From Escherichia phage ph0011, in the sequence record OP557969.1: 64,000 bases of DNA; one strand, given 5' to 3'. Position 1 is the stretch's first letter; each line of letters starts with the position of its first letter. Made by a program: the position numbers and the translations under genes. A model generated the notes under the pieces. That model saw only the letters and a program-made list of their open reading frames with translations. It had not been told where the DNA came from and ran no database searches. This document shows positions 6,428 through 63,510 of this stretch, piece after piece.

Positions 6428-6567
6428 AGACGTTTCGTATGATGTATTCAAACGTACAATAAAACAATACTATATAACTTTTTATAATTGATATTTTTTA
6501 AAAAATACACAATCACAACGTGCTCCTTTTATTGGAATTTACCTTATTAATTATAGTTGAGGGGAAG

Positions 6568-7663: not shown

Positions 7664-7664
7664 T

Positions 7665-8188: not shown

Positions 8189-8189
8189 T

Positions 8190-9097: not shown

Positions 9098-9099
9098 TA

Positions 9100-13241: not shown

Positions 13242-13246
13242 ATCAA

Positions 13247-13931: not shown

Positions 13932-13938
13932 GGTTTTT

Positions 13939-14475: not shown

Positions 14476-14501
14476 CCCCCACCAAATCTTTGTGATATAA
14501 T
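14472..14501 (+). promoter_or_regulatory. sigma70-like early promoter with extended -10 (TGTGATATAAT)
   Basis: TTGACC-N18-TATAAT with TG two bases upstream of the -10; intergenic. Confidence 0.5.
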
Positions 14502-14534
14502 CTCTTTAAATTAATTGTAAAGGGTTATATCGCA

Positions 14535-15475: not shown

Positions 15476-15827
15476 GAAAACAATTCAGTACATCACTGAT
15501 GGCAATGAATACTTTGCTTCAAGATATGAATTCAGTGAGGGTCATTTCGTAACTTATATACCTGAATATAATCAGTTTTATCTCCAGATTTACCAAAAAG
15601 ATTCCAATATAAATGAATTATATACCGAAATAAAAATCCCAGATTATAGTACTTTATCAGAAGAGGAATTGTTTCAGGAGAGCACGATCAGTACTGAAGA
15701 TGTATACGAACTAATTGAATATCAGAAGGTACTTAAATATTTCCATAAATCACATGATATAGAAATGGATATGGTTAAACCGTGGCGTTATAATACATAT
15801 GAGGTAAATTATGTTAGAAATGATTAA
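15465..15827 (+). CDS. FQ-family paralog
   Basis: ATG ORF; core SEEELFQESTIST. Confidence 0.65.
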   Translation: MQNKKTIQYITDGNEYFASRYEFSEGHFVTYIPEYNQFYLQIYQKDSNINELYTEIKIPDYSTLSEEELFQESTISTEDVYELIEYQKVLKYFHKSHDIEMDMVKPWRYNTYEVNYVRND

Positions 15828-16224
15828 AATCATACAACGCTGTCTTGTTGACAAATATGGTATATATGGATATAGTTTAAGTGCTCCTATTGACAAAAAC
15901 AAAACAACCTATGTAAGCTATAATGCAGTGCGTGGGTTTGATATATTCATTAGTACTAATCATCAAATTAAACAAGCTAAAGATGTGTCTATGATGGCCC
16001 CTGACGAGTTGTTTCAGTACAGCTTAGTTCTTCCTACATGTATCGATATACATCGTCTAGGAGCTATACAGAAGGTTTTACGTGAACATAAAATACTACC
16101 TAATAAAATTACACACATCCCAGAAACAATCTTCAAAACCATAGAAGTAGAAACCCCTGATTATATGTTAAGTGATGATGAGTTCTACGAGAAGCACTTC
16201 CCTGGTAAAGTTTGGAGAGACTAA
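15811..16224 (+). CDS. FQ-family paralog
   Basis: ATG after GAGG; core APDELFQYSLVLP. Confidence 0.65.
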   Translation: MLEMIKIIQRCLVDKYGIYGYSLSAPIDKNKTTYVSYNAVRGFDIFISTNHQIKQAKDVSMMAPDELFQYSLVLPTCIDIHRLGAIQKVLREHKILPNKITHIPETIFKTIEVETPDYMLSDDEFYEKHFPGKVWRD

Positions 16225-35296: not shown

Positions 35297-36781
35297 ATGA
35301 AAGTATGTACGAATTTAAATGTTACTGGTGATATAACGTCTAATGGGATGACGTTAAGCAAGAATCATAATTATGAGAATTTTAGTGACCTACAAGAAAG
35401 ATGTACTAAAATGCTTTTACAATTTGATAAACCTGAAGTATACGATCCTGATATTACTATTACAATAACTACTAAAAATGTAAATTATACATATAAAGGA
35501 CCAATTGATGGTATGTGTGATATAGAAAATCCTTCATTGTATAAAATTTCCATGTATGTATACACTGACAAAGAGTATTTTATAAACGATGTACAATTAT
35601 CAGATGATGGTAGTTTTCATTTTTCTAAAACGAATAATGGCTCAAAACAATTTAGACTAATTAGAATATCTGATAATAAATGGATTGATACATTAGAATA
35701 TGCATTATTGACTAGAAGTTATATAATACCAGAAACTGAAGATTCGCAAGTTAGAAATACAATGAAAGATCGTTGTTACACATATGATCAAGCGGCAGTT
35801 GCTATTGCATTAATGGTACAAAACCACCCAGAGATGGATAGATATGTATATGGTTTGTGTCAATTGGTTGAGGAAAATGGTGGAATAAAATTTTTTGTTA
35901 ATAGGATATCGGCATTTTCCAATAGAGCATACTATAGAATGGGTAATGCTGCATGGGTATTATATGGATTAGCTTTTTACTTATGGAAATTCCCAGATGG
36001 GGTATATGCGAATTTGGCCCGTGAAAAACTTTTGTTAGGGTTAGAATGGGTATCAACTTTTAAAGTAACTACACCCGGTGATAAAAGAGAAGGTTTATAT
36101 ATGGGTGGAAAAGGAAAATTTATCAATAATGGTTCTCAATTTGACCCGAATTACATTGCTAGTTGGTGTGCAATGGAACACAATTTAGATCTTTGGTTTT
36201 TATTTGATCTATGCTCTGTTATTGGAATTCAGAATTATGATACAATAGCAAAGGAATTACATAATAATATAAATGATAAATTGTGGATAGAAAGTGAAGG
36301 ACGTTTTCGTCAAGGTGTACATGAAACAACAGATGATAATGCTGCTGCATTAGATCAATCATCATGGGGTGGTTTGTATTCTTTATATGCAGATGGTAAT
36401 GATACAAAAGCAGTAAAATGTCACAAATATATGGAACGTTTTATGTTTGGTACGTTGGAATGTGAGGGATATACGCCTTATAATAAATTATTTGGTTATC
36501 CAAATGCAGTACAAGGTGTATGGACTGAAGGAACTGCTGGTGTGGCTTTGTTTGAACGTGCATTGGGTAATGACAGAACTGCCGCAAAATTAATTGCTAA
36601 TTTGAAGCCTATATGTGACCCAGTTTATGGATATCGTGACTCATGTGATGACCCAGATTACGATGTTCTTCCAGATTGGCCTTCCTCGTGTAATACAGCA
36701 TGGATTATTCTGGCTATTAACCCACAAGGTTTCTGGAAAGTTGAAGCCCCACTGATGGATATTGGGCTTGTGAAATATTAA
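35297..36781 (+). CDS. large hypothetical protein, possible alpha/alpha-toroid (six-hairpin) glycoside-hydrolase-like fold
   Basis: ATG after AAGGA; 494 aa; repeated aromatic/Gly-rich segments (NAAWVLYGLAFY, LDQSSWGGLY, VWTEGTAGVALF, SCNTAWIILA); fold call is my pattern-based guess. Confidence 0.5.
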   Translation: MKVCTNLNVTGDITSNGMTLSKNHNYENFSDLQERCTKMLLQFDKPEVYDPDITITITTKNVNYTYKGPIDGMCDIENPSLYKISMYVYTDKEYFINDVQLSDDGSFHFSKTNNGSKQFRLIRISDNKWIDTLEYALLTRSYIIPETEDSQVRNTMKDRCYTYDQAAVAIALMVQNHPEMDRYVYGLCQLVEENGGIKFFVNRISAFSNRAYYRMGNAAWVLYGLAFYLWKFPDGVYANLAREKLLLGLEWVSTFKVTTPGDKREGLYMGGKGKFINNGSQFDPNYIASWCAMEHNLDLWFLFDLCSVIGIQNYDTIAKELHNNINDKLWIESEGRFRQGVHETTDDNAAALDQSSWGGLYSLYADGNDTKAVKCHKYMERFMFGTLECEGYTPYNKLFGYPNAVQGVWTEGTAGVALFERALGNDRTAAKLIANLKPICDPVYGYRDSCDDPDYDVLPDWPSSCNTAWIILAINPQGFWKVEAPLMDIGLVKY

Positions 36782-39531: not shown

Positions 39532-39795
39532 ATGAATATCCAAGATAGATTACAATTGTTGTGCACACTTGAACAAGCTGCTTATGAACTTGTTAATAAA
39601 ATCTCTGAAGAACTTCCCAAAGGAACTAGAGTTCGTGTTCGTGAAATGGATTATGTAACGGGTGAAATTGAAGAAAAAGTTTTAACAGTGGTTAAAGTAA
39701 CATACTATGAGTCAGAGCTATCAATTCAATGTAAGTCAGATAATGGTTACATTTCCTACTATGGCACTGATATAGAGATGGAGGTAATCAAATGA
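39532..39795 (+). CDS. small hypothetical protein
   Basis: In-frame ATG at 39532 after GGTGGA. Confidence 0.5.
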   Translation: MNIQDRLQLLCTLEQAAYELVNKISEELPKGTRVRVREMDYVTGEIEEKVLTVVKVTYYESELSIQCKSDNGYISYYGTDIEMEVIK

Positions 39796-40934
39796 CCCTT
39801 TTACAAATATATGAAGATTTGATGCACTTATGTAATACCCGTGAGGCTTTCTTTTATGTAGATCATAAAAGTCCTGCTGGTGGCACATATCGTGTATTCA
39901 GTTATCGACTAGCATCATATACTGATTTCATGCAACCGAATGCATTGGAAACCCGTGGTTCTATGTGGGAAATCGATGACGATGGCAACATGATACGTTG
40001 TGCATCACGTTGTATGAAAAAGTTCTTTAATGCTTACGAAAATCCTGCTACGATGTTCCCTGCTGATACCAAATGTGATGACATTGCAGTAGTGATGCCT
40101 AAGTTGGATGGTTCAATTATCAGTTCTTACCGTGATAATGATGGTATTATTCGTTGTAAATCACATACCTCATTGTATTCTGACCATGCAATTAACAGTA
40201 CTCGACTAATTAACGAGAACCAGAATTTGTATCAGTACATTGATGAAGCTGAACGTTTGGGTTACACGGTTAACATGGAGTACACAAGCCCAGAGTACCG
40301 AATCGTATTGCCATATCAGGTAGAACAACTATTTGTTCTAAACGTCCGTCATCGTGTAAGTGGTGAATTGTTGTGTGGTAAAGCATTACGCGAAAAGTTT
40401 CCTTGTCTTTCACAGTACAGCACCAATATGACAGGTAAAGATATTCATCACACGTTTCCGGTAAGAAATACATTTCGTGAAAGTGTTGAAGAAGTTCATA
40501 AAATGCTTGATATTGAGGGTTTTGTTTGTATTCTAAAAGATGGGACAATGTGTAAAATAAAGACGGATTGGTATAGTTCATTACATCTAACAAAAGACAG
40601 TATCATTATTGATTCACATTTGTTCGAAGCTGTGTTAAATGGTTCAAGTGACGACTTGAAACAATTATTCAGTACTGACGAATATGCTATGCAAAAGATA
40701 TTGAGAATGGAACAATTGGTATTTTCGTGCTATAATTCATTACAAGATGAGGTAGAAAACTTCGTCAATACACACAAGCACTTGGGACGAAAGGAATTCG
40801 CAATGAAGGTTCAGGAGTGTTTGACTAATGAACTAAATCGTCAGGGCTTGGCCTTTGCAATGTATAACAATAAGTATGTTGATTATAAAGAAACTCTTAT
40901 CAAATACATGAAAGTAGTACTAAAGGACTTTTAG
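39792..40934 (+). CDS. rnlA: RNA ligase 1 (T4 Rnl1/gp63-like)
   Basis: ATGA overlap after GAGG; 380 aa; N-terminal segment FFYVDHKSPAGGTYRVFSYRLASYTDFMQPNALETRGSMWEID closely parallels T4 Rnl1 as I recall it, including the adenylylation-site lysine context. Confidence 0.9.
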   Translation: MTLLQIYEDLMHLCNTREAFFYVDHKSPAGGTYRVFSYRLASYTDFMQPNALETRGSMWEIDDDGNMIRCASRCMKKFFNAYENPATMFPADTKCDDIAVVMPKLDGSIISSYRDNDGIIRCKSHTSLYSDHAINSTRLINENQNLYQYIDEAERLGYTVNMEYTSPEYRIVLPYQVEQLFVLNVRHRVSGELLCGKALREKFPCLSQYSTNMTGKDIHHTFPVRNTFRESVEEVHKMLDIEGFVCILKDGTMCKIKTDWYSSLHLTKDSIIIDSHLFEAVLNGSSDDLKQLFSTDEYAMQKILRMEQLVFSCYNSLQDEVENFVNTHKHLGRKEFAMKVQECLTNELNRQGLAFAMYNNKYVDYKETLIKYMKVVLKDF

Positions 40935-42032: not shown

Positions 42033-42965
42033 ATGCCGACTATCACACTAACAGTTGGTTTACCTGGATGTGGTAAAACAACATGGGCAGTACAAGAGAT
42101 TAAAAAAGCCAAATCCAAGACTATCAATATCAACCGTGATGATATTCGTGAATCGATGGCTGGGTCACATGATGCTTACAAATTCAATGATGCTAATGAG
42201 AAGTACGTAACTAATTTACAGTTCAGTGCAGCAAAATTAGCAGCAGAGAATGGTTGGAATATTATTGTATCCGACACAAACCTTAAACCACATTTCCGTG
42301 AACAATGGAAAATGTGGGCTAAAGATAATGGTTATGATTATAAAGAAAAGAACTTCTATGATGATTTTGTACCAAAGGAAGACCGTGGTGCAGATGTTCA
42401 TGAATTCTTTAAGATTAAAGAGTTTGTAAAACTTTGTAAGAAATATAACCTCCAGCGTGAGCGTTCAGTACAAGATAATATCATTGACACAATGGCAGAT
42501 ACGTACTATTATAGTAAGGCATTGCATATTGGTTACTATGGTAATTCTCGTGAAGAAGCGATTATCGTTGATATCGATGGAACTCTTGCTCATAAATGGA
42601 ACCGCAATCCATTTGATGAAAGTACAGTTCTCCAAGATACACCAGACGAAGAAGTTATTTTGTCTGTTATCGCCGAAGCAGTTTTTCATAAACGCAAGAT
42701 TATTGTCATGAGTGGTCGTACTGAAGGGTGTCGTGCTGACACAGAACAGTGGTTGAAGAATTGGGGTGTTCCCTACGATGCATTGTTTATGCGAGGCATT
42801 GATGATAAACGTCCCGATGATGTTGTTAAATTCGACCTGTACATGAAAAATGTGGTTGATCATTACGATGTTAAAAAAGTATATGATGACAGAGCACAAG
42901 TCGTATTCATGTGGCGTAAACTACTTGGATTGAAAGTGATGCAAGTTGCGGAAGGAAATTTTTAG
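42033..42965 (+). CDS. pseT: polynucleotide 5'-kinase/3'-phosphatase (T4 Pnk-like)
   Basis: ATG after AAGGAG; P-loop GLPGCGKTT in kinase domain; phosphatase DxDGT motif (VDIDGTL); collinear with T4 PseT as I recall it. Confidence 0.92.
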   Translation: MPTITLTVGLPGCGKTTWAVQEIKKAKSKTININRDDIRESMAGSHDAYKFNDANEKYVTNLQFSAAKLAAENGWNIIVSDTNLKPHFREQWKMWAKDNGYDYKEKNFYDDFVPKEDRGADVHEFFKIKEFVKLCKKYNLQRERSVQDNIIDTMADTYYYSKALHIGYYGNSREEAIIVDIDGTLAHKWNRNPFDESTVLQDTPDEEVILSVIAEAVFHKRKIIVMSGRTEGCRADTEQWLKNWGVPYDALFMRGIDDKRPDDVVKFDLYMKNVVDHYDVKKVYDDRAQVVFMWRKLLGLKVMQVAEGNF

Positions 42966-48014: not shown

Positions 48015-49213
48015 TGGATTTTCCAGAGAAGTTATTTGTTGCACGTTCCTATATAAACCACAACCAAGTTAATGGTTATATTATCGATGCAACAAAATCA
48101 CACACAAAAGCATTCGAAACAAAGAAAGAAAGAGCTGAGTACTGGGCCAACAAGAACAAACTCCCATCGTTGTATATTGATAATGTACCAACTACAGGTT
48201 TTTGTGTAGTTGATAAATTGACAATTCATGCACGTGAAACATATTTCACTATCCGACATCCTGAAGGATTTGAATTTATGATTAGTTCCAAAAACATGAA
48301 TGATTTGATTATTAATAATGATATAATTAAAGGTGTTTTTGTTGACCCAATGTTTTTCAATAATAACTTAGAGTTGATCAATGGTAAAACAAAAGCATTT
48401 GCTAAGTTGGTTGATAAAGAAAATAAAAAAGAAAAACAAAAAGAAATTGTAGCAGGACTCAAAGTTGGTGATGGCTTCACTTATAACAAAGAAGATTACT
48501 ATTACTGTGGTAAAGTACATGCAATTTGTATAAAGAAAACTAAAGAATTTGCATACCCAGATAAAAGTTCAGTATATCATTTAGTGTTTAATAGTTCTCG
48601 TGGAACTTATGCTTTGAATCAACGTTTGGATAATTACAAACTGGAACCTCGTGCTCTTTTGAATAAGAAGACTACAACAGATGAAGAAATTAAACTTGCT
48701 AATGAATTTTGGCAAAGCTATAGAACAAACAGACATAACCCATTAGGTGAATCTAACATTCCAGTACTGGTACACAATAAATCATTTAAAGCAAAAGACC
48801 TTAAAATTAAATACGAAGAAATAAATGTTGATGATCTTATGAACAATGGACGTTTCAACGAAAACGTACCATTCATGACTAAAGATAATGAACAATCTTA
48901 TCGCGTATTTTTTGGTGTAAGTAATAATACAACACGTAGTTATTACGGGCGTAGTGGAGATTACACTATCCATTACAATGATAAATTTGAACGATTTAGT
49001 GCATATCCAGTTCAAATAGATGATAATGGAATTATGGTAATGGATGTTGATATTAACACACACTCTTCATTCAGTACATGGAATGGTCATCGTTCTCCAT
49101 TCTTTCCACCAAATGAACGCAAAACATCAAGTACTCGTTACTATCAAGATAAGCCGTGTCACGTACAACTAGCAATCAGCAATCCACTTTACATTGGAAA
49201 GTATTATCTATAA
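48014..49213 (+). CDS. hypothetical protein (399 aa)
   Basis: ATG at 48014 overlapping upstream TGA, 8 nt after GAGGA. Confidence 0.65.
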   Translation: MDFPEKLFVARSYINHNQVNGYIIDATKSHTKAFETKKERAEYWANKNKLPSLYIDNVPTTGFCVVDKLTIHARETYFTIRHPEGFEFMISSKNMNDLIINNDIIKGVFVDPMFFNNNLELINGKTKAFAKLVDKENKKEKQKEIVAGLKVGDGFTYNKEDYYYCGKVHAICIKKTKEFAYPDKSSVYHLVFNSSRGTYALNQRLDNYKLEPRALLNKKTTTDEEIKLANEFWQSYRTNRHNPLGESNIPVLVHNKSFKAKDLKIKYEEINVDDLMNNGRFNENVPFMTKDNEQSYRVFFGVSNNTTRSYYGRSGDYTIHYNDKFERFSAYPVQIDDNGIMVMDVDINTHSSFSTWNGHRSPFFPPNERKTSSTRYYQDKPCHVQLAISNPLYIGKYYL

Positions 49214-49224
49214 AGGAATATACA

Positions 49225-50643
49225 ATGAGCATTTTAGCAATTATTGAAAGCATTAAAAATACTAGTAGTACACTAGGCAAAAAAGCTATCCTTGAACAAA
49301 ATAAAGATAACTTAACTTTACAAAAAGTACTGAAATATACTCTCGACCCTTCAATTGTAAGTGGCTATAAGAAACTCCCTGCCGCTGATGACGTAGATCA
49401 ACATATGACGTTAGATGAAGCAATTGATAAGCTAGAATGCATTTACAAGCGTAGCTTGACAGGAAATGCGGGGCGTGATTTCATTGCTTCAGTACTGGGT
49501 TCAGTATCAGAAGATGATCAGGAAGTTCTCCGTAAAATGCTCACTAAGAACCTTGATTGTGGTATCCAAGAAAAGAACTGCAATGATGTGTTTGGTAAAG
49601 GATTCATCAAAGACGAACCATATATGCGTTGTTCTTTGATTGACAAAAAGACTGCAAAGAACATTAACTTCAAAGACTATGGCTATGCAGTCTCTGAGGT
49701 GAAAATGGATGGTCAGTACTTGAACCACGTTGTCATTAATGGTTCATTAACTTCTACATCCCGTAATGGTAAACTCTACGACTTCCTGGGTTGTCGTGAT
49801 GGTGAGATGGCAGGTCTTGCTCACATCATCCAAAGTAAAGATGAACGTTTTAGTAGTGGTGTAGTCTTTATGGGTGAAGGTGTAGTACTGGATACTGATG
49901 GAGAAACCATTCTCCCGCGTACTACAGGTAATGGTATTATTCAGAAAGCTGGAAAAGATTCAATCACTCAAAGTGAAGCAATGCGTACTGTATTCGTTCT
50001 ATGGGATGTTGTTCCATATGATGCATTCAGTGAAGGTGTATGGAATGTAAAACGTAAAGAACGCCGCGAGATCTTAGTTGGTGCAATCAATGAACTCGGT
50101 AGTGAATTTGTTCGTATGGTTGGGTTCCGTAAAGTTAACAACATCAAAGAAGCATTTGAGTACAACAGTGAACTGATGAACAAAGGTGAAGAAGGTTCAG
50201 TACTGAAATGTGAAGATGGTATCTGGAAATCTCATACTTCTCCTAAGCAGTTGAAAATGAAACTTAAGATGCAATTGGATTTGCGTATTGTTGGTTTCAA
50301 TGAAGGTGAAGGTAAGCGTAAAGGTAGCCTTGGTTCTTTACAACTGGAAAGTGCATGTGGTACACTAAAAGTAAATGTAGGTACAGGTATCCGTGAAAAA
50401 GATGCCGAATGGACGTTTAAAACCATTTGGGAAAGAATGCAAGAACTCATTGGTAAAGTAGTAACCGTGGAGTGCAATGATATAGTACAAGATAAGCGTA
50501 CTGGCGAACCATCACTATTTTTACCTGTGTTTATTGAATTTAGATTTGACAAAAACACTTGCGACGATTATACTCGTATCTTAGAAATTCGTGATAGTGC
50601 AGTTGAAGTGTTTTCAAACAGTATTATTGAAGTTTTAGGTTAA
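49225..50643 (+). CDS. 30: ATP-dependent DNA ligase (T4 gp30-like)
   Basis: ATG at 49225 after AAAGGAA; N-terminal KKAILEQNKDN and active-site KMDG (Kx-DG) motif; overall collinear with T4 DNA ligase as I recall it. Confidence 0.9.
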   Translation: MSILAIIESIKNTSSTLGKKAILEQNKDNLTLQKVLKYTLDPSIVSGYKKLPAADDVDQHMTLDEAIDKLECIYKRSLTGNAGRDFIASVLGSVSEDDQEVLRKMLTKNLDCGIQEKNCNDVFGKGFIKDEPYMRCSLIDKKTAKNINFKDYGYAVSEVKMDGQYLNHVVINGSLTSTSRNGKLYDFLGCRDGEMAGLAHIIQSKDERFSSGVVFMGEGVVLDTDGETILPRTTGNGIIQKAGKDSITQSEAMRTVFVLWDVVPYDAFSEGVWNVKRKERREILVGAINELGSEFVRMVGFRKVNNIKEAFEYNSELMNKGEEGSVLKCEDGIWKSHTSPKQLKMKLKMQLDLRIVGFNEGEGKRKGSLGSLQLESACGTLKVNVGTGIREKDAEWTFKTIWERMQELIGKVVTVECNDIVQDKRTGEPSLFLPVFIEFRFDKNTCDDYTRILEIRDSAVEVFSNSIIEVLG

Positions 50644-50662
50644 CCATTTATTGGAGGTAATT

Positions 50663-51454
50663 ATGAAATTTGTCGTAACATCTGATGTACACGGTAGTAC
50701 TGATTACCTCCATAGTGGGGATTACAGCGATACAGTACTGATTATTGCGGGAGACTTCGATGAAGTTAAACGAAGTCGTTATCGTACTGGTATTGAATCA
50801 CTGTGTAAGCAGTTCAAGAATGTAGTTCTGGTTCCAGGAAACCATGAGTATTATGGTTCAAACATTCACAAAACGCATCGAGTACTGTCCGATATGCAAG
50901 ATGAGATTCCAAATTTCATCTTTTTGCAAAACAAATTTGTATGGCTGGATGGTGTACTGCTCGTTGGTAGCACACTATGGACTGACTTTGATAAAGGCAA
51001 TGCACTGGTTAAGTTTGATGCTCAACAAAAGATGAATGATTATAAACACATTCGTCATGGAACAACATCAGAACCGTGGAAACGTAAACTCAAACCTGAT
51101 GATGTTGAGTTCATGCATTATCAGGATAAACAATTTATCAAAAATTCAGTTGATACAGTTCGTCTAATGAATGATAATGATATCAAGGTTGTGGTGGTAA
51201 CACATCATGCACCAAGTTATCAGAGTGTATCTCCGAGATACAAGAATGACTCACTGAATGGATGTTATTGTTCTGATATGGACCAGTACATCGAAGATTT
51301 GGGTGCTGATGTTTGGATTCATGGTCACGTTCATAGTAGCTTTGACTACCACATTGGTAAGACACGTATCATTTGTAATCCACGAGGCTATGAATCGTAC
51401 AGTGGTGCTTGTGAGAATTTTGATTACAATCCAAAATTTGTAGTTGAAATCTAA
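50663..51454 (+). CDS. metallophosphoesterase
   Basis: ATG after GGAGG; motifs SDVHG, GDFDE, GNHE, GHVH typical of the calcineurin-like superfamily. Confidence 0.75.
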   Translation: MKFVVTSDVHGSTDYLHSGDYSDTVLIIAGDFDEVKRSRYRTGIESLCKQFKNVVLVPGNHEYYGSNIHKTHRVLSDMQDEIPNFIFLQNKFVWLDGVLLVGSTLWTDFDKGNALVKFDAQQKMNDYKHIRHGTTSEPWKRKLKPDDVEFMHYQDKQFIKNSVDTVRLMNDNDIKVVVVTHHAPSYQSVSPRYKNDSLNGCYCSDMDQYIEDLGADVWIHGHVHSSFDYHIGKTRIICNPRGYESYSGACENFDYNPKFVVEI

Positions 51455-51859: not shown

Positions 51860-52242
51860 TGGAAAATGTCGTTGTATATGTATTTGAGATCAATAATGAA
51901 ATCAAGTACGTAATTAATGGTTATAAACATTACACAAGAGCAGACCGAAAGCTGGAAATATATTCAAAAGAAGCAAGAAACTACTGCTTAGGTGATGATT
52001 CAGTTGAGGTTTGGATTGATGGAAATGCAGAGTATTTTGATGCTGACTTCTATGATGATCTTGACAAATCAAATGACTTGTACATTTATGTAGAAAATGA
52101 ACATTATTACACAAATTCTTTGTTTGACATTACCGACAGTACAGTATATGATACTGCTATGGTTAAGTTACTAAAGATTGACCACGATATGTTTAATAAA
52201 CATACAATTTGTGGTTTATTAGATTTTTTCAGAAACTTGTAG
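51859..52242 (+). CDS. hypothetical protein
   Basis: ATG overlapping upstream TGA; 127 aa. Confidence 0.55.
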   Translation: MENVVVYVFEINNEIKYVINGYKHYTRADRKLEIYSKEARNYCLGDDSVEVWIDGNAEYFDADFYDDLDKSNDLYIYVENEHYYTNSLFDITDSTVYDTAMVKLLKIDHDMFNKHTICGLLDFFRNL

Positions 52243-52267
52243 ACAAATACGATCACTGTGATATAAT
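52240..52267 (+). promoter_or_regulatory. sigma70-like early promoter with extended -10 (TGTGATATAAT)
   Basis: TAGACA-N16-TGaTATAAT in the intergenic region upstream of the ClpP-like gene. Confidence 0.45.
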
Positions 52268-52301
52268 ACTCACATAAATGAAACAATAGAGGAAAATAAC
52301 A

Positions 52302-52997
52302 ATGGTTGAACAATTCAATTTTGGTGGTTATGCTAATGGTGAAGTAAGTAACATTTCTATTCCATATGTAGTTGAGAAAGTTAATGGTTCAGAACGTACA
52401 TATGATCTAGCATCTCGTATGATGCAAGACCGTATCATTTTCCTTGATACTGACTTCAATGACCAAATGGCACATATCATCAAACAACAATTGGTGTGGT
52501 TAGACTCACAAGGTGATTCCCCTATTACATTCTATATTAGCTCACCGGGCGGTTCAGTACACGCAGGATTGGGTATTGCAGATGTTGCCAAGTCTTGTGT
52601 TTCACCAATTCGTACTGTAGTAATGGGTTATGCAGCTTCAATGGGGTGTTATACTCAATCGGTAATTGGTACTAAAGGTTTTCGTTTAGGTGGTAAGCGT
52701 TCTTACTTTATGTGTCATCAAGTAAGTTCTGGCACACAAGGTTTAATTACCGACCAGAAGATTTCACTTAAACATTCTGATGAATTGAATACACTATTGA
52801 CCAAAGAAATCGCAGAAGCAGTAGGTGTTTCTCATGAACAACTACTGAAAGATGCAGACCGTGATTTGTGGTTGAATGCTGAAGAAGCACTCGAATATGG
52901 TGAAAAAGGATTTATCGATGGTATTATCCTTGGACCACGCAACGAGAAAGGTCAATACCTAGTCAAGCGTCGTGGTGGTGTTGAAGAGTGGGTGTAA
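52302..52997 (+). CDS. ClpP-like serine protease (peptidase S14 family)
   Basis: ATG after GAGGAAAA; segments RIIFLDTDFND, ISSPGGSVHAG, GYAASMGC (Ser), MCHQ (His) align with canonical ClpP. Confidence 0.85.
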   Translation: MVEQFNFGGYANGEVSNISIPYVVEKVNGSERTYDLASRMMQDRIIFLDTDFNDQMAHIIKQQLVWLDSQGDSPITFYISSPGGSVHAGLGIADVAKSCVSPIRTVVMGYAASMGCYTQSVIGTKGFRLGGKRSYFMCHQVSSGTQGLITDQKISLKHSDELNTLLTKEIAEAVGVSHEQLLKDADRDLWLNAEEALEYGEKGFIDGIILGPRNEKGQYLVKRRGGVEEWV

Positions 52998-53045
52998 AAT
53001 AGTTTTATTGATACCCCAAATGGGGTATCATCTTTTGGAGATTAT

Positions 53046-53875: not shown

Positions 53876-54400
53876 ATGAAATATACACAACTAAACAACA
53901 ATGATACTAATATATGGTTAGGAAATATATCTAAAACACTTGAATTGGTTAAATTCACACTACAAAAATCGGTCGATATTGAAATTAATATTAAGAAAGA
54001 AATATTAAAACATTATCATAAAAATAAATTTTACAAGTTTATTTCTAAATTAATCTATGGGTTATATGATATTGAAGATATTTGTATTGGGTACAGTACT
54101 GGTATTTGTTTCACTACTGATGGTATAATGAATGATTTAAATTTTCGACTAACCCGCGAAGAACAAGATTTTCGTATATTTTGTGATAATATCATGAATG
54201 AAGATAAAATCCAATTTGTGATTGAATTGAGTCAGATATGGTCTGTATATGCAGACAAACCATTCGAAATTAATGAATCAGATATATTAAACTATATTCG
54301 AATAATGAAAATTCATGATTTATGTAAAAACGCATTACTAAGTATTGGAGCCTATGATGAAGCATACGACGTGGTTAAAGATAGCAGAAGTGGTTGCTGA
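53876..54400 (+). CDS. hypothetical protein
   Basis: ATG after GAGGA; 174 aa; 3' end overlaps the cd start by about 44 nt in another frame. Confidence 0.5.
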   Translation: MKYTQLNNNDTNIWLGNISKTLELVKFTLQKSVDIEINIKKEILKHYHKNKFYKFISKLIYGLYDIEDICIGYSTGICFTTDGIMNDLNFRLTREEQDFRIFCDNIMNEDKIQFVIELSQIWSVYADKPFEINESDILNYIRIMKIHDLCKNALLSIGAYDEAYDVVKDSRSGC

Positions 54401-54836
54401 AGAAAGTAAATGTCTTTCTCAAAAAGTTGGGTGTGTGATTGTTAAAAATAACCGAGTATTGAGTACTGGTTATAATGGTACTCCATCTAAACAACCTAAT
54501 TGTTGTGATGTTAATCAACATTTAGTTAAGAATGGTCGTTTTCAAGACTGGATTAGTGATGAAGCAAAGCATGAACACCATGAGTGGAGTAATATTCATG
54601 AAATACATGCAGAAATGAATGCACTGTTATATAGTTCTCCGACTGAGCGTCAAGGTTCAACACTTTACACAACACTCCAACCGTGTTATACTTGTTCTAA
54701 ATTGATAGCGGGGAGTGGTGTTTCTCGTGTAATTTATCAAAAAAGTTATCCTCGTACTCCACCAGAGGCTATTAAAGTACTGGAAGATGCTGGGATTATT
54801 GTAAATTGCATTTATGATAAGGATCTTGACAAATGA
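54357..54836 (+). CDS. cd: dCMP deaminase
   Basis: ATG 6 nt after GGAG; zinc-binding motifs HAEMNAL and PCYTCSKLI (HAE...PCxxC) and ESKC N-terminal segment as in T4 Cd; the ATG at 54354 is an alternative start. Confidence 0.88.
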   Translation: MKHTTWLKIAEVVAEESKCLSQKVGCVIVKNNRVLSTGYNGTPSKQPNCCDVNQHLVKNGRFQDWISDEAKHEHHEWSNIHEIHAEMNALLYSSPTERQGSTLYTTLQPCYTCSKLIAGSGVSRVIYQKSYPRTPPEAIKVLEDAGIIVNCIYDKDLDK

Positions 54837-55356: not shown

Positions 55357-58029
55357 TTAAGCACTGATTGTTACAGTTGCAGTATCTTTTTTATTACCAT
55401 CCACTGTAGTCACTGTAATGATTACAGAACCTTCTTCTAGAGCAGTTACTAATCCATCATCACTAATAGATACTTTAGTAGGTTTATCTGCACTATAAGT
55501 TACTGATTTGTTAGTTGCTTTAGCTGGTAGAACTTCTGGAACTAGTTGAACTGTTTTAGTTCCTGATAGTGAAAGTTCAGTAGTTTTAGGTGTTAAACTA
55601 ACACTGGATACTGGAACTGGAATATTAACGATTACTGATGTTTGACCAGTAACATCACTACCATCAGCGGCAGTAGCGATAATATTTGCAGTACCATTAG
55701 TTAGTGCAGTTACGATACCAGTATTAGCATCTACTTTAGCAATTTCTGGAGCACTGGATGACCAAATTACATTTTTATTGGTTGCATCACTTGGGGTAAT
55801 TGCAGCAGCCATTTGTTTAGTTGCATTCAATGTAGTCAAAGTTTGATCTTTAGGAGTTACATCAATTGCAGTTACTGGCACTGGAATATTAACAGTAATA
55901 ACACCTTGACCTGTTTTACCACTTCCATCAGCAGCAGTTGCGATAATGTTTGCAGAACCGTTAGTTAACGCAGTTACAACACCAGTACTAGCATCTACTT
56001 TCGCTACAGCAGGTTTACTGGAAGACCATGTTACAGATTTATTTGTTGCGTTAGTTGGAAGAACTTCAGCAGCCATTGCTTGAGTTGCGTTAACAGCAGT
56101 CAATGTTTTAGTTGCTGGAGTAACATTAATAGATGCGACTGGAACTGGAATTGCTACAGTTACCGCACATTTTGCAGTTTTTGCTCCATCAGCAGTTGTT
56201 ACTGTGATATCAGCAGTGCCATTTGCTACAGCAGTGATTAAACCAGTTGGACTAACAGTTGCCACTCCATCAGCAGAAGTACTATAAGTTACTGCTTTGT
56301 TGGTAGCATTAGGTGGTAGTACAGTTGGTGTTAGTTGTTGAGTATCACCGACTGAAGTTAATTTAGCACTTGTTGGAGATACTGATACACTTGCAACAGG
56401 AACTGGAATGTTAACAGTTACCACGCAAACTTTAGAAAATCCACCATCAGATGTGGTTGCTGTAATATTTGCAGTACCGTTTGCAACAGCAGTGATTAAA
56501 CCAGTTGGACTTACCGTTGCGACACCCTCAGCAGAAGTAGTGTATGAAATATCTTTACGACGAGCGTTATCTGGAATAACAGATGCAGTTAGTTGTTGAG
56601 TAGCACCTACAGAAGTTAGGGTTGCTGTCAACGGAGTCATATTAATTCCAGTTACTGGGATCGTTACATCAATCACTGATTCAGCAGTTTTAGCACCATC
56701 ATCAGTGGTAACAGTAATAGTTGTAGTACCGTTATCAACCGAAGTTACTAGACCAGTATTACTAACTTTTGCTACGTCTGGATATGAAGAAACATATGAA
56801 ACTGCTTTATTGGATGCAGTTGCAGGAGCAACGGTTGTTTCTAATTGTTTAGTATCACCTAATGTTGAGAATGTATAAGTACTAGGAGTCATTGTGACAC
56901 CAGATACTGGTGTTTTCACTGTGATTGTAGTAGTGTCCGTTTTAGCACCATCTTCGGTTGTAGCTGTAATCACCACTGTGCCGTTAGCCACACCAGTTAC
57001 TAGACCAGAAGTAGGGTTAACAGTTGCTATATCAGGTGTTGCTGAAGACCACGTGACGTTTTTATTAGTTGCATCATCAGGAGATATTGTAGCAGTTAAT
57101 TGTTGAGTACTGCCAACGTTAATTGATGCAGTTTTAGGAGAAACAACAACACCACTAACTGGAGTTGTTACAGTAACAGTACATTTTGAAACAAATGAAC
57201 CATCAACTGTAGTTGCAATTACATCAGTACTGCCATCTGCAATACCAGTTACCATACCAGTTGGACTTACAGTTGCGAAGCGTGGTATACTGGATGACCA
57301 AATAACACTTTTATCACTTGCATCATCGGGTGATACGGTAGCTGTTAGTTGATGAGTTTTACCAACACCAAGAGATAGAGTTGAAGGAGAAACAACAACA
57401 CCACTAACTGGAGTTGTTACAGTAAATGCACAAACATCGGTGAAACCACCATCATGAGTAGTAACTGTTACATTTGCATTACCATTAGCACGGGCAATTG
57501 CTAAACCAGTTTGAGCATCAACTTCAACTATTGTTGGAGCAGAGGAACTATAACTTACTGTTGGATCATTTGCATAATCTGGATTAATTGTAGCTGATAG
57601 TTGTTGTGTGCTACCAACTTTAAGTGCTACTACTTTGGGTGAAATAATAACACCATTAACTGGTGTAGTATAATCACGTTTAACCACACGACCATTGTTC
57701 AATTTAATAATACGACCCATATAAAGAGTAGCATATCCCTTACTAATCCCATCATCTACATAAATCATAAATGAATTGTCTTGAACCATATTAATTGCGT
57801 CTACTGGCTTAACAGTATTTGGAATGTCGATACCACGGGTATCATACCAACACATGGAAACTTTGTAATATATATCACCATTATCATTGATGAGATCATA
57901 CACGTTACTGGAACGTTGACGGTTAATATATAAAGTTTCGGTTAATACCTTACCATCGATTTTAGCGACAGAAACTTTAATACCACCAATACCAAATGGC
58001 AATTTACCTTCACTAGATATTGCTTTCAT
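55357..58029 (-). CDS. large virion-surface-type protein with about nine to ten tandem Ig-like (Big_2-type) domains
   Basis: 890-aa ORF, the only strong minus-strand gene; AAGGAAA RBS; repeated 85-90-aa units TPVSGV..SP...L.VG.TQQLTATV.P.DATNK.V.WSS..P..A.V...G.VT.VA.GT..ITATT.DG; ~120-aa non-repeat N-terminal domain. Confidence 0.85.
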   Translation of the reverse strand: MKAISSEGKLPFGIGGIKVSVAKIDGKVLTETLYINRQRSSNVYDLINDNGDIYYKVSMCWYDTRGIDIPNTVKPVDAINMVQDNSFMIYVDDGISKGYATLYMGRIIKLNNGRVVKRDYTTPVNGVIISPKVVALKVGSTQQLSATINPDYANDPTVSYSSSAPTIVEVDAQTGLAIARANGNANVTVTTHDGGFTDVCAFTVTTPVSGVVVSPSTLSLGVGKTHQLTATVSPDDASDKSVIWSSSIPRFATVSPTGMVTGIADGSTDVIATTVDGSFVSKCTVTVTTPVSGVVVSPKTASINVGSTQQLTATISPDDATNKNVTWSSATPDIATVNPTSGLVTGVANGTVVITATTEDGAKTDTTTITVKTPVSGVTMTPSTYTFSTLGDTKQLETTVAPATASNKAVSYVSSYPDVAKVSNTGLVTSVDNGTTTITVTTDDGAKTAESVIDVTIPVTGINMTPLTATLTSVGATQQLTASVIPDNARRKDISYTTSAEGVATVSPTGLITAVANGTANITATTSDGGFSKVCVVTVNIPVPVASVSVSPTSAKLTSVGDTQQLTPTVLPPNATNKAVTYSTSADGVATVSPTGLITAVANGTADITVTTADGAKTAKCAVTVAIPVPVASINVTPATKTLTAVNATQAMAAEVLPTNATNKSVTWSSSKPAVAKVDASTGVVTALTNGSANIIATAADGSGKTGQGVITVNIPVPVTAIDVTPKDQTLTTLNATKQMAAAITPSDATNKNVIWSSSAPEIAKVDANTGIVTALTNGTANIIATAADGSDVTGQTSVIVNIPVPVSSVSLTPKTTELSLSGTKTVQLVPEVLPAKATNKSVTYSADKPTKVSISDDGLVTALEEGSVIITVTTVDGNKKDTATVTISA
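55360..57670 (-). repeat. in-frame tandem repeats of about 255-270 bp encoding Ig-like domains
   Basis: Recurrent nucleotide and peptide units visible across the gene body. Confidence 0.65.
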
Positions 58030-58066: not shown

Positions 58067-58074
58067 TATTTATA
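58067..58074 (-). promoter_or_regulatory. T4-type late promoter (TATAAATA)
   Basis: TATAAATA on the minus strand 38 nt upstream of the ATG at 58029. Confidence 0.45.
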
Positions 58075-58329: not shown

Positions 58330-58935
58330 ATGAAACTATTCTTGAAAGAGATTGTACAAACCGTTGTTTTAATCGCTGCATTAAATTTTCCAGCAGCGGC
58401 AGAAGTTTCAAAAAAAGCATCTGTTCTTCTATTAAATGAACAGGTTGTATCAATGGATGGTGAACTAAATGATAATACGGTACAAGAAGTAGAGCAGTTG
58501 TGGAAAGAAAAAAGATTTAAAATTTTAACAATTACATCACCTGGGGGTGATTTTGATGCTGGTATTAAAATGGCAAATTTTGTTAGAGACAATGGTATAA
58601 ATTTAATTGTTTCTAAATATTGCAATTCGGCATGTACTGTGGTATTCTTTAGTGTATCCCCAGAAAAGCGATATATGACAAATCAATCAGTACTGGGATT
58701 GCATAATATTTCAATCAAAAGTAACGTTAAAGATATGGATCATACTTTCGTATCTGTTAGACAACTATCATCATTTACTGAAGAAATGGCAACAAAAGTA
58801 GGATTTTTATTTACACTATATTCAGCTAATGGTATTCCACCTAGCATTCTATATAAAGTTAGTCGTTCACGTGGTGAAGATGTTGTTATCTTAACAAAAA
58901 CAGACCTAATAAATTACGGTTCAGTCAATCCATGA
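58330..58935 (+). CDS. putative secreted ClpP/SppA-fold serine peptidase-like protein
   Basis: ATG after GAGG; N-terminal signal-peptide-like hydrophobic segment; ITSPGGDFDAG and CNSACTVVFF resemble the ClpP/S49 SPGG and Ser regions. Confidence 0.45.
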   Translation: MKLFLKEIVQTVVLIAALNFPAAAEVSKKASVLLLNEQVVSMDGELNDNTVQEVEQLWKEKRFKILTITSPGGDFDAGIKMANFVRDNGINLIVSKYCNSACTVVFFSVSPEKRYMTNQSVLGLHNISIKSNVKDMDHTFVSVRQLSSFTEEMATKVGFLFTLYSANGIPPSILYKVSRSRGEDVVILTKTDLINYGSVNP

Positions 58936-59003: not shown

Positions 59004-59264
59004 ATGACAAACATCCAGAATTTGACATCTATTATTTTTTATGCTACAGTGGTGATATATGCTATTGTACTTATTTTAACAGTTTTTATATACAAAGATT
59101 ACAAAAAAGGCTTTATTAATAGCACAACAATCAAGTTCAATTCTAAATTTAAAGAAATTATATTTTATGTTTTGACAACATCATATTTGTTGTGTATATT
59201 GTTACTAGGGCCATTGATTTATATTTTATATACAACATTATTTGCAATTGGAGCTATTTTATGA
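59004..59264 (+). CDS. small predicted membrane protein
   Basis: ATG ORF; two hydrophobic helices; stop overlaps next start (ATGA). Confidence 0.5.
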   Translation: MTNIQNLTSIIFYATVVIYAIVLILTVFIYKDYKKGFINSTTIKFNSKFKEIIFYVLTTSYLLCILLLGPLIYILYTTLFAIGAIL

Positions 59265-59857
59265 CATGTATTATTGCACACACTAACGGTGTAACTTCAT
59301 TTATTGCAGGGGACAAGATGGGGAGTGATGGTTTTACGAAATCAATCCAAACAGAGCCGAAAGTGTTTGAGAAAGAATTCGTAAAGATTAGTGGTGATGA
59401 CGGCTTGACTCGTACAAAAGATGTTATGACTTTTGGATTCACTACATCATTTCGTATGGGGCAACTGCTAACTTACAATTTAAATTTACCAGACCAAAAT
59501 TCAAATGAGACGTTTCTACAGTACTTAGTACTGAAAGTTATTCCTATTATTCGCCAAATGTTTAAAGACGAATGGGGTGCACGTGATACATCACAAGATG
59601 TTGGTGGTGGTCAATTTATTATTTTACACAATCATAAGATTTATGAAATTCAGGAAGATTTTTCAGTTCTCCAGTCAAAATCAAGTATTGCATCAGTTGG
59701 TAGTGGTACATATCATGCAATTGCAGCGATGCAAGCATACATTGAACTCGAAAAAGAAACTAACGTACAACTTCATGAACGTATCAAATCTATTTTCAAA
59801 ATTGTCAGTGATAATGTGTCGAGTGTAAGTGAAGAGTTTGATGTATTAAAATATTAA
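59261..59857 (+). CDS. proteasome-type Ntn-hydrolase (HslV-like peptidase)
   Basis: ATG at 59261; N-terminal MTCIIAHTNGVTSFIAGD (Thr directly after Met) and IASVGSGTYHAIAAMQAYIE parallel HslV TTIV...IAGD and IAIGSGGPYA segments. Confidence 0.65.
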   Translation: MTCIIAHTNGVTSFIAGDKMGSDGFTKSIQTEPKVFEKEFVKISGDDGLTRTKDVMTFGFTTSFRMGQLLTYNLNLPDQNSNETFLQYLVLKVIPIIRQMFKDEWGARDTSQDVGGGQFIILHNHKIYEIQEDFSVLQSKSSIASVGSGTYHAIAAMQAYIELEKETNVQLHERIKSIFKIVSDNVSSVSEEFDVLKY

Positions 59858-60076: not shown

Positions 60077-60829
60077 ATGATATCAGAAAAATTCATAAGT
60101 AATGAGGGAAACAAGAGATTACTTATCATCTCAGGAGCAGGTCTTTCCGTTGAAAGTGGTATGGACCCATTTCGTTTCGATGATGGCCTATGGGATACAT
60201 TTAAAATTAATGATGTATGTAATATTGCAAATTTAGATACAAAATATCATATTGTTCATTCGTTTTATAACACGCTGCGTGTTAAACTGGGTCAATGTGA
60301 ACCAAATGCAATGCATTATTTTATAAAATCATTAGAGGAACAATATGGTGATTGTTTCCTTCATATGACTTCAAATATGGATGATCTTTACACCCGTATT
60401 GGCGGTAAAGAACTTAAACTTCATGGTAATTTATGTGAAGTGATAGAAAATTATAGTATTAATGGTGATGATTACAACATTGTTAACTGTGGTTATGAGC
60501 CATATATCCCAAAACATGATATTTTTGCTAAACCAAATGTAGTGATGATTGGTGAGTATCATCGTTATGTAGATGGTGTACGCCTACCAATATATGAAGA
60601 ACGAAATAATGTCTTGAAATCCCTTGATGAAAATGATACAGTTATTGTTATTGGTAGCAGCGATACTGTTCTTGTATGGTCCCGATTGGTAGCATCATTG
60701 CCATGTTATAGTGTCAATGTTAATATTAGAAAGAATGATAATGATTTTTTGTTTAATGAAAAAATTATCAAGCCAGCAACCAAAGCAATACCACAACTAG
60801 AGACTATAATTAAGGAACGTATGAAATGA
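60077..60829 (+). CDS. Sir2-like (sirtuin family) protein
   Basis: ATG after AAGGA; LLIISGAGLSVESGMDPFR (GAGxS.ESG..FR), LHGNL (catalytic His), VVMIGE and TVIVIGSS motifs; canonical Zn CxxC pairs not evident. Confidence 0.78.
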   Translation: MISEKFISNEGNKRLLIISGAGLSVESGMDPFRFDDGLWDTFKINDVCNIANLDTKYHIVHSFYNTLRVKLGQCEPNAMHYFIKSLEEQYGDCFLHMTSNMDDLYTRIGGKELKLHGNLCEVIENYSINGDDYNIVNCGYEPYIPKHDIFAKPNVVMIGEYHRYVDGVRLPIYEERNNVLKSLDENDTVIVIGSSDTVLVWSRLVASLPCYSVNVNIRKNDNDFLFNEKIIKPATKAIPQLETIIKERMK

Positions 60830-62070: not shown

Positions 62071-63510
62071 ATGAAAAAATATACAATTGACACAAACGTA
62101 CTACTATCTGATCCAAATGCATCTGTTGCTTTTGATGGTGCTGCAATCATTCTACCATTTACAGTACTGGAAGAATTGGATTCGATTAAGAGTCGCAATG
62201 TTGATGTTTCACGTGATGCTCGTGTTGCGATTCGTAACATTGAAGCAATTATTGCAGAGGCATCACATAATGAGATTAGTTGTACTGGTGTTAATATTGC
62301 TGATGTTCATACCAATATGAGTCCTGAAAGCAAATTGTTTGTTATTACAAACGAAGAAGCTGAAGCACTAATTCGTACTAAGGCAATTGAAGATAAAGTT
62401 CAAACACTTCTCAAAAGTTCTGTACCAGATGATAAAATTATCTTAGTCGCTTTAGCAACTGATTCAGTACTGGTTACCCGTGATATCAATATGCGTATCA
62501 AGGCTCTTAGTTATGGAGTTGAAGTACAGGATTATCGTCATGATGTGGTTATCGGTGATAGCGATCTAATGCACGTAGGTCAACATCATCTCGATATCGA
62601 TTTCTGGGCAGAATTCAGTGGGATTGAAAATGCTGAAATTAAATCTGAAAAAACAGGTCGCCGCCTGTATCATTATATCCCAACACATCTAATCAAAGAT
62701 CTTCTTCCACAAAATCTTTGTATTGGTGACTATCTATATGATAATGCTGATGTGCTCTTTGTTTACGAAGGTCAGTCTGCAATCGAAGAAGATGATGGTA
62801 GTCTAACACCAGAAGATATTTTGGTCTTCCAAGATATTGGTCAATCTGTTGCATTACGTGCTAATGTATGGGATATTAAAGCTAAGAATGTCAAACAAGC
62901 ACTAGCTATTAATAGTATTCTCGATCCCGATGTACATCTAACAGTTCTACTAGGTTCTGCTGGGACAGGAAAAACACTAATTACGATTGCTACTGCACTA
63001 GAGTTAGTTCTGGAAAAACGTAAATACGACCGTATTATCTTCTCTAAAACACAAGATTCACAGTTTGAAGATATCGGATTCTTGCCTGGTTCAGAGGCCG
63101 AGAAAGTGATTCCATTTTGTGGTCCAGCGATTGACGCACTAGAGTACCTACATAAAGATGATGCAAATCCACAAGGTAGCATTGAGGAAATCATGAAACG
63201 TAATGTTATCCAGTTCAAAGCATTGAACTTTATTCGTGGTCGTTCTTTTGCCAATACAATTCTAATTGTGGATGAAGCACAGAACTTAACACCAGCCCAG
63301 CTAAAAACTGTCTTGACAAGAGCCGGAGAAAACTGTAAAGTAATCATACTTGGTAACCTAGCACAGATCGATAACAAGTTTATCAGTCCAGTAAACAGCG
63401 GTCTAACTTATGTAACTGAGAAATTTAAAAATTGGTCTGGTTGTCGTATCATTGAATTGGAAGGTGTTGTTCGTTCACCACTTGCTGAATTTGCTGAAGA
63501 AAATATGTAA
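62071..63510 (+). CDS. phoH: PhoH-like ATPase with N-terminal PIN domain (YlaK type)
   Basis: ATG after AAGGA; PIN-like N-terminus (YTIDTNVLLSDPNA...LEELD); Walker A LLGSAGTGKT, Walker B ILIVDEAQNL. Confidence 0.88.
   Translation: MKKYTIDTNVLLSDPNASVAFDGAAIILPFTVLEELDSIKSRNVDVSRDARVAIRNIEAIIAEASHNEISCTGVNIADVHTNMSPESKLFVITNEEAEALIRTKAIEDKVQTLLKSSVPDDKIILVALATDSVLVTRDINMRIKALSYGVEVQDYRHDVVIGDSDLMHVGQHHLDIDFWAEFSGIENAEIKSEKTGRRLYHYIPTHLIKDLLPQNLCIGDYLYDNADVLFVYEGQSAIEEDDGSLTPEDILVFQDIGQSVALRANVWDIKAKNVKQALAINSILDPDVHLTVLLGSAGTGKTLITIATALELVLEKRKYDRIIFSKTQDSQFEDIGFLPGSEAEKVIPFCGPAIDALEYLHKDDANPQGSIEEIMKRNVIQFKALNFIRGRSFANTILIVDEAQNLTPAQLKTVLTRAGENCKVIILGNLAQIDNKFISPVNSGLTYVTEKFKNWSGCRIIELEGVVRSPLAEFAEENM

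Follow-up and report, generated by a model that had tools for sequence, protein, structure and literature searches.

The 64,000-nucleotide stretch of Escherichia phage ph0011 DNA analyzed here (sequence record OP557969.1; the whole stretch is called the window) contains clpP, an open reading frame (ORF) whose product resembles the peptidase ClpP. The question raised by this locus is whether a virulent jumbo phage uses such a protein to mature its prohead, as many GenBank and RefSeq records say, or to degrade proteins in the infected cell, and in the latter case with which ATPase. We conclude that the ORF encodes a genuine ClpP with an intact catalytic triad and gate, and the protein is, with high probability, an active, gated ClpP and not a prohead protease. 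The explanation that we favor, at a probability of roughly 0.6, is that this phage-supplied ClpP forms the core of an ATP-dependent, self-compartmentalized protease and is paired with a ClpA-like unfoldase encoded by the phage itself.

The ORF product matched the Pfam CLP_protease profile (PF00574) across positions 2-179 of 182 with 142.6 bits (E 1.6e-41; cut-off 20.2), a score far above chance expectation. A phmmer search of the PDB returned 109 ClpP sequences at E < 1e-5, among them full-length matches to solved ClpPs (E 4e-36); the alignments begin at residue 19-20, and the N-terminal axial region is therefore included. A reading of this DNA made from the sequence alone (below, the sequence-only reading) had recognized a ClpP Ser-His region in AASMG...MCHQ. 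Both motifs are where a ClpP should have them (Table 1), and alignment with E. coli ClpP, with which the phage protein is 35% identical, completes the triad as Ser113, His139 and Asp188, so that the loss of catalytic residues that would have refuted that reading was not seen. The oxyanion-hole residues Gly84 and Met114 also occupy canonical positions, and these five residues are invariant in 58 of 58 aligned sequences.

A search of 5.8 billion proteins delimited the ClpP clade to which the protein belongs, and residue statistics were taken from 42 of its members. The clade comprises at least 67 clusters at 90% identity, 59-99% identical to the window ClpP, with lengths of 214-259 amino acids and source contigs of up to ~370 kb; beyond it come a few intermediates, and no cellular ClpP exceeds 47% identity. 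Recent capture from the host was rejected on the basis of this separate clade, the distance of its nearest cellular ClpPs and the low identity to the E. coli protein. The triad, the oxyanion residues and the Arg-Asp pair (Arg187/Asp188 in the window protein) are invariant in all 42 members. The same holds for the equivalents of the E. coli gate residues P4, V6, E8, R15 and D18, while E14 is kept in 40 of 42; all six are found in the window ClpP. A gating role for these axial-loop residues comes from cryo-electron microscopy of ClpAP (10.1101/820209). The leader preceding the gate varies from 4 to 47 residues across the clade and is probably a propeptide removed by autocleavage, judging from its alignment.

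An AlphaFold2 model built on 57 homologues has a mean predicted local distance difference test score (pLDDT) of 91.7, falling below 50 at residues 1-10, and displays the ClpP alpha/beta fold with its handle region. The best 50 Foldseek matches in the PDB are all ClpP (target-normalized template modeling score 0.90-0.96; root-mean-square deviation 1.1-2.3 A). Both alignment and model contain the Arg187/Asp188 pair and the handle helix, and assembly into rings is predicted.

The sequence-only reading had suggested that such a ClpP could redirect proteolysis by pairing with host Clp ATPases. The Clp-type protease stands, but the phage family's own ClpA had been overlooked. Megablast of the 50-56 kb region placed the window among the ~350-kb Escherichia, Salmonella, Klebsiella and Erwinia jumbo phages of the Asteriusvirus/Rak2-like group, with Escherichia phage UE-S1 as the closest relative (ClpP 99.1% identical). 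With E. coli ClpA as the query, tblastn showed that essentially all Rak2-like phages have a full-length ClpA-like gene, in agreement with the conservation of ClpA described by Attai et al. (PMC6102473), and megablast found it in 32 of 32 Escherichia Asteriusvirus records, UE-S1 included. The protein, 762 amino acids long in phage 121Q, is 43-45% identical to E. coli ClpA over residues 22-732. It combines the D1 and D2 AAA+ modules (AAA, AAA_lid_9, AAA_2 and ClpB_D2-small) with both Walker A/B pairs, KYR and GYVG pore loops, sensor motifs and GARP, and carries IGM at the position of the E. coli docking tripeptide IGL; the clade as a whole has IG(M/V) or LGM. An unfoldase with a docking tripeptide was present in every relative examined (UE-S1, 121Q, phAPEC6, Muenster and CBB). 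Matches to ClpP and ClpA, counted by genus, numbered 33/32, 10/11, 8/10 and 8/8. Other jumbo phages with a ClpP likewise have an unfoldase of their own, namely phage G, in which clpP and clpX are adjacent, Lak, PA5oct and Atu_ph07. In PA5oct (L016 1-2508) and Atu_ph07 (L017 1-2541) the ClpA-like gene directly follows dnaJ and therefore hints at proteostasis; in the enterobacterial Rak2-like phages, unlike these two, clpA is wedged between giant virion-protein genes. Using E. coli ClpX as a tblastn query, no Asteriusvirus record appeared among the best 60 matches, and 15 weaker Escherichia matches may be cross-matches to ClpA D2. A search for ClpS in Asteriusvirus and Alcyoneusvirus gave no match at E <= 0.01.

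Promoter type links the two genes. Part of the 59-nt gap before clpP is filled by a promoter-like sequence, TAGACA/TATAAT (52240-52267), that matches consensus at 11 of 12 positions and has TG before the -10 hexamer; it is predicted to act as a promoter because of this match. When two other Asteriusvirus clpP upstream regions were aligned with it, neither the -10 block GTGATATAAT nor the ACTCAC downstream of it varied. The sequence-only reading had given clpP its own early-type promoter: a sigma-70-type promoter is indeed present, and "early" follows from its type alone. The layout CTTGTAGACAAA-N9-TGTGATATAAT recurs with equal spacing upstream of clpA in 121Q and phAPEC6, and with one base different in UE-S1. 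The core TGATATAAT occurs 11 times on the plus strand of the window and never on the minus strand, with 3.8 occurrences expected for both strands together; seven of the 11 lie in gaps between larger ORFs. The sites (for example 14493, 27478, 29177, 36846, 44615, 52259 and 63539) usually follow an nGACA -35-like element by 16 nt. The minus strand of the window has no promoter site matching at 11/12 or better. From its distribution, TGATATAAT looks like the early/middle promoter class of this genome.

The structural module of phAPEC6 is marked differently. There six genes, those for capsid and scaffold among them, have the T4-type late motif TATAAATA 24-55 nt upstream, always on the strand of the gene concerned, while TGATATAAT occurs before clpA only, which lies on the opposite strand. 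The contrast between TGATATAAT before clpA and TATAAATA before capsid and scaffold points to an early/middle, host sigma-70 type of promoter for clpP and clpA; by this motif evidence both genes would share a temporal class, with the morphogenetic genes of late type. In Klebsiella phage Muenster, clpP and clpA both have TTGACA-type sigma-70/extended -10 promoters, and a terminator is annotated after clpP at the position matching the terminator-like hairpin of the window. A private Clp-specific operator was also considered. A strict IMG/VR scan for GTAGACAAA-N9-TGTGATATAAT gave four loci, with one site in a 121Q-sized contig, and the window has a single copy of the 11-nt upstream box, which drifts among the clpP promoters of close relatives (TTTGGACATTT in phAPEC6). 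Because the box is both rare and drifting, the operator was dropped and the shared promoter class kept.

A motif search found no TATAAATA on the plus strand of the window, and thus none for clpP. The motif does occur at 58067-58074, 38 nt upstream of an opposite-strand gene with immunoglobulin-like (Ig) repeats. This gene (55357-58029, minus strand; 890 amino acids with nine Big_2 repeats) is the only large minus-strand gene of the window and is flanked by hairpins. The matching position is held in phAPEC6 by the 14-kDa virion protein gp347 (75% mass spectrometry coverage) and in CBB by the Ig-domain protein CBB_112. It looks like an island of late virion decoration, with a greatly expanded repeat number, in an early region, and it mirrors clpA, an early-type gene in a late region.

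The name "head maturation protease" was given to the gene in the records because its best PHROG match is phrog_94, which bears that name (E 3e-44). The match is confined to profile positions 56-262 of 622, the protease domain alone. Apart from this match and the product name used in several records, the prohead role can draw on one finding, which also speaks against our own reading: in the CBB virion list the ClpP orthologue CBB_104 is represented by one peptide (4.5% coverage), which is weak evidence. Against these stands a dedicated protease of another family in the head module of the relatives. In CBB a gp21 homologue, CBB_255, lies between the portal (CBB_252) and capsid (CBB_257) genes; in phAPEC6, gp227c is a Peptidase_S77 of the T4 gp21 type (E 1e-20), located between scaffold/capsid gp226c/gp225c and portal gp230c, with clpP (gp353c) ~120 kb away among enzymes of DNA and nucleotide metabolism. 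The phAPEC6 virion proteome (62 proteins) contains gp227c and neither gp353c nor the ClpA-like gp246c, and in that of RaK2 (54 proteins) the S77 protease gp092 is listed but no Clp protein, so that two of the three virion proteomes lack ClpP. The gene therefore has neither a head-module location, nor a late promoter (by motif), nor, going by the relatives, the standing of sole prohead protease of its genome, and its product keeps the ATPase-dependent gate typical of cellular ClpPs. Because of the separate S77 protease in the relatives' head module and the absence of ClpP from two of the three proteomes, the label is very probably a misannotation; a prohead role is largely refuted and we regard it as extremely improbable. 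The sequence-only reading had reached the same view from the lack of head genes nearby, and this is borne out: there is no portal, capsid, scaffold or terminase gene among the profiled ORFs of the window, most small ORFs in 1-26 kb not being among those profiled, and the capsid-operon location that would have contradicted that view is not what the relatives display.

The choice of partner turns on the docking interface. The sequence-only reading had proposed aligning docking loops in ClpP; the loops belong to the ATPase, and ClpP supplies the pockets together with the N-terminal gate. The pocket that receives IGL in E. coli ClpAP consists of L23, L48, F49, A52, Y60, Y62, F82, I90, M92, F112, L114 and L189 (10.1101/820209). 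Eight of these 12 positions are conservatively kept in the window ClpP and four are changed (A52S, Y60T, F82S and L114G, in E. coli numbering). The changes are conserved in the clade: A52S in 40 of 42 members, L114G in 39, Y60T in 34 and F82N/S in 33. All 42 also extend 21-23 residues beyond the L189 equivalent, compared with 3-6 in cellular ClpPs. This tail has the consensus RNE.GQ..V.RR.G...WV and is modeled as two short strands at pLDDT > 90; in the alignment it is absent from the ClpPs of PA5oct-like phages and Atu_ph07.

Loop and pocket differ together between lineages. Asteriusvirus (ClpA loop IGM-S), Alcyoneusvirus (IGV-S) and CBB, a Mimasvirus (LGM-D), each combine an altered loop with Gly114 and the C-terminal tail in ClpP. 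The tail is missing where the loop is IGF-G, in Atu_ph07 (Leu114) and the PA5oct-like phages (Ser114), and in E. coli (IGL-I, Leu114). Since both sides of the interface are altered in one lineage, co-evolution of the ClpA loop and the ClpP pocket as a cognate pair is suggested, although the lineages are few and non-independent. Because the pocket is remodeled and the tail conserved, the main partner of the phage ClpP is most likely the phage ClpA and not a host ATPase; from the sequences, we hold this pairing to be probable. A partnership with host ClpX or ClpA has ceased to be the simplest interpretation, given the phage ClpA, the shared promoter type and the altered IGL-contacting residues.

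Several points nonetheless weigh against such a phage-encoded pair. The clpA gene lies outside the 64-kb window, and its presence in this genome is extrapolated from relatives, in which it is 85-100 kb from clpP (86 kb downstream in UE-S1). It always lies within the tail/baseplate module, flanked by virion-protein genes and on the opposite strand, and its product could be an assembly chaperone working without ClpP. The clpP of CBB has no promoter of its own and an intergenic gap of 13 nt, and the promoter class is general in the region (the 11 window sites), which indicates a common temporal class and no private regulon. Two groups that are phylogenetically non-independent underlie the correlation between loop and pocket divergence. 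Most pocket positions are still hydrophobic, so host ClpX or ClpA may dock. No expression, interaction or activity data for the clade were found in open-access text.

Some of these points favor an alternative in which host ClpX and/or ClpA are the main partners of the phage ClpP, so that Clp proteolysis of the host is redirected or boosted, and the phage ClpA-like protein is an independent virion-assembly chaperone. The eight hydrophobic pocket positions, the location of clpA in the tail module and the lack of ClpS or a clear ClpX homologue in Asteriusvirus are all in its favor. ClpB-type chaperones, which do not bind ClpP, lack the docking tripeptide; the phage ClpA keeps it. The clpA promoter is of early and not of late type, ClpP and ClpA co-occur across the clade, and the IGL-contacting positions of the pocket carry changes conserved in the clade. 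We consider this use of host ATPases unlikely.

Mixed ClpP1/ClpP2 rings exist in bacteria, and they lend some plausibility to a further alternative, namely that host proteolysis is changed or blocked by a phage ClpP that joins host ClpP in common assemblies or titrates host ClpX/ClpA, for instance shielding phage proteins from ClpXP. Published work describes a heteromeric ClpP core in Streptomyces and modulation of ClpXP assembly by ClpP2 in P. aeruginosa. The identity to E. coli ClpP and the retention of ring-contact features such as Arg187/Asp188 are compatible with co-assembly. The invariance of triad and oxyanion residues in the clade, however, argues for selection on catalysis and not for a decoy role, and a cognate unfoldase is encoded in the same genomes. 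Such interference is accordingly very unlikely.

The pairing of phage ClpP with phage ClpA thus remains the preferred explanation, and may be pictured as follows. Host sigma-70 RNA polymerase would transcribe clpP before the late morphogenesis genes, as a unit bounded by the promoter-like site and the terminator-like hairpin. The protein would lose its short leader and assemble into rings, with Ser113, His139 and Asp188 lining an inner chamber and the N-terminal gate shutting the pore. A hexameric AAA+ partner, in this proposal the phage's own ClpA-like double-ring unfoldase, would dock the hydrophobic tips of its loops in the ClpP surface pockets, unfold substrates and feed them in. Regulated or quality-control proteolysis of host and/or phage proteins would be the outcome. 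Timing, oligomerization, leader removal, pairing and role are all inferred. Regulated degradation of host or phage proteins is one possible role; another is that the machine maintains proteome quality while more than 500 phage proteins are made over a long infection. Iyer et al. (PMC7824862) suggested that jumbo-phage ClpP targets host proteins.

A stronger version of the proposal is that the enterobacterial Rak2-like phages carry an orthogonalized ClpAP in which the phage ClpP is driven by the phage ClpA only. It would set the IGM/IGV/LGM loop against Gly114, a polar residue 82 and the structured 22-residue tail beside the pocket. This version is speculative, and we think it rather improbable. 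If true, the phage would have a degradation channel of its own, expressed early, closed to host ClpX/ClpA and adaptors, and directed for example at defense or regulatory proteins of the host. The interface changes would make a simple case for testing whether a virus can insulate its degradation machinery from that of the host, and an orthogonal pair would be a candidate protein-degradation tool in E. coli.

As a feature, the gene is already known, being annotated in dozens of genomes and with a non-structural reading published. Phage-encoded clpP has been annotated for over a decade and comparative papers have speculated on its action against host proteins; it is better studied together with the phage ClpA-like motor than alone. 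The misannotation argument, the shared clpP/clpA promoter class, the remodeled pocket and the conserved tail were not found in the open-access literature, where phrases for phage-encoded or viral ClpP also gave no match. Mentions of clpP in PhageExpressionAtlas concern host clpP only, and Clp goes unmentioned in the main text of the PA5oct omics paper.

Table 1. Positions of clpP, its signals and residues, and of profiled neighboring genes in the window.
Feature	Position	Strand	Description
Promoter-like element	52237-52267	+	TTGTAGACAAA, holding the TAGACA -35-like hexamer; 16-nt spacer; extended -10 TGTGATATAAT
Shine-Dalgarno-like AGAGGA	52288-52293	+	8 nt before ATG; kept in upstream regions of relatives
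clpP coding sequence	52302-52997	+	ATG start; 231 amino acids plus stop (ORF list)
N-terminal leader	52302-52352	+	Residues 1-17; alignment places it opposite the propeptide region (14 residues) of E. coli ClpP
Axial gating loop	52356-52406	+	Residues 19-35, SIPYVVEKVNGSERTYD; contains the equivalents of the E. coli gate residues
Ser113 codon	52638-52640	+	Catalytic; within AASMG (residues 111-115); E. coli Ser97; alignments A1, A4
His139 codon	52716-52718	+	Catalytic; within MCHQ (residues 137-140); E. coli His122; alignments A1, A4
Asp188 codon	52863-52865	+	Catalytic; within DRD, after Arg187; E. coli Asp171; alignments A1, A4
C-terminal extension	52929-52994	+	Residues 210-231, LGPRNEKGQYLVKRRGGVEEWV; clade-specific, 22 residues
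Intrinsic-terminator-like hairpin	53009-53036	+	TGATACCCCAAATGGGGTATCA followed by TCTTTT; after clpP
DNA ligase	49156-50643		Profile match
Metallophos	50651-51454		Profile match
dCMP deaminase	54345-54836		Profile match
Sir2	60077-60829		Profile match

The clpP gene is situated among genes for nucleotide metabolism and repair, and a NUDIX protein is also found among the profiled neighbors. The order DNA ligase, metallophosphoesterase, small ORFs, clpP, small ORFs, dCMP deaminase and opposite-strand Ig-domain virion protein is kept as far as Pectobacterium phage CBB. Elsewhere in the window, a T4-type RNA ligase 1 (RNA_lig_T4_1 and T4_Rnl1_C; 39792-40934, plus strand) lies near a gene for polynucleotide kinase-phosphatase (PNKP; AAA_33 and HAD_PNKP; 42033-42965, plus strand); in T4 this pair of enzymes repairs tRNA. 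A PIN_4 domain fused to a PhoH-like ATPase (479 amino acids; 62071-63510, plus strand) has a phAPEC6 orthologue, gp341c, that was found in virions (eight peptides, 31% coverage). A tail-fiber-like ORF of 494 amino acids (35297-36781, plus strand; phrog_13714, E 6e-184) is located among early-type genes and has no exact TATAAATA upstream. Small families of tandem paralogues occur in 6520-16224 on the plus strand, with seven related ORFs of ~110-140 amino acids and five of ~146-156 (all-against-all blastp, E < 1e-5).

Three peptidase-like genes fall within 52.3-59.9 kb, clpP being the first. The second (58330-58935, plus strand) is an ORF of 201 amino acids with a hydrophobic, signal-peptide-like N-terminus and with SPGG and NSAC motifs; its similarity to the ClpP fold is weak (Pfam CLP_protease, 23.6 bits; phrog_26024 "protease", E 3e-83). 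This ORF is called "head maturation protease" in vB_Ec-M-J and is not in the phAPEC6 virion list. The third (59192-59857, plus strand; likely true start 59261) matches phrog_1040, "peptidase HslV family" (E 2e-22), and gave no Pfam or PDB sequence match; Asteriusvirus phages have homologues of it, as do many T5-like phages, there with an identity of about 30%. From Met24 it reads M-T-C-I-I-A-H-T-N-G...I-A-G-D, with Thr straight after the initiator Met as in the N-terminal nucleophile peptidases of the HslV/proteasome-beta type. A single-sequence AlphaFold model had a pLDDT of 42 and was not used. On these motifs, a second self-compartmentalizing protease core 6 kb from clpP is possible.

Set beside known systems, the window protein shares with the bacterial ClpPs (MEROPS S14; for example E. 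coli, S. aureus and Thermus) full-length homology at 35-46% identity, the triad, the oxyanion Gly/Met, the Arg-Asp pair, the gate residues and the fold (root-mean-square deviation 1.2-2.3 A over ~195 aligned columns). It differs from them in its origin in a virulent jumbo phage, its ~17-residue leader of other sequence, the four pocket changes, a three-residue EKG insertion before the last strand and the conserved tail. As in E. coli ClpAP, both halves are encoded by one family, and the ClpA-like half has D1/D2, pore loops and a homologous docking tripeptide. The putative phage complex differs in that its two genes are 85-100 kb apart and not in a host-like arrangement, no ClpS was detected in Asteriusvirus, and the tripeptide IGM, IGV or LGM is followed by a polar residue in place of IGL-I.

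Among jumbo phages, the PA5oct-like phages, Atu_ph07, Bacillus phage G and Lak also combine a phage ClpP with a phage unfoldase, and a role of jumbo-phage ClpP outside virion maturation has been proposed (PMC7824862). These phages, however, also carry ClpX and often ClpS, have canonical IGF loops in ClpA and ClpPs without the tail and Gly114, and in PA5oct and Atu_ph07 place clpA after dnaJ. The ClpP-fold prohead proteases (phrog_94 and others) belong to the same superfamily and provide the best PHROG match, but are encoded between portal and capsid genes, whereas the window gene stands alone, far from head genes, and specifies a cellular-type gate. T4 gp21 (Peptidase_S77) is likewise a phage serine protease, of an unrelated family, and in the Rak2-like phages its role is filled by their own S77 protease in the head module.

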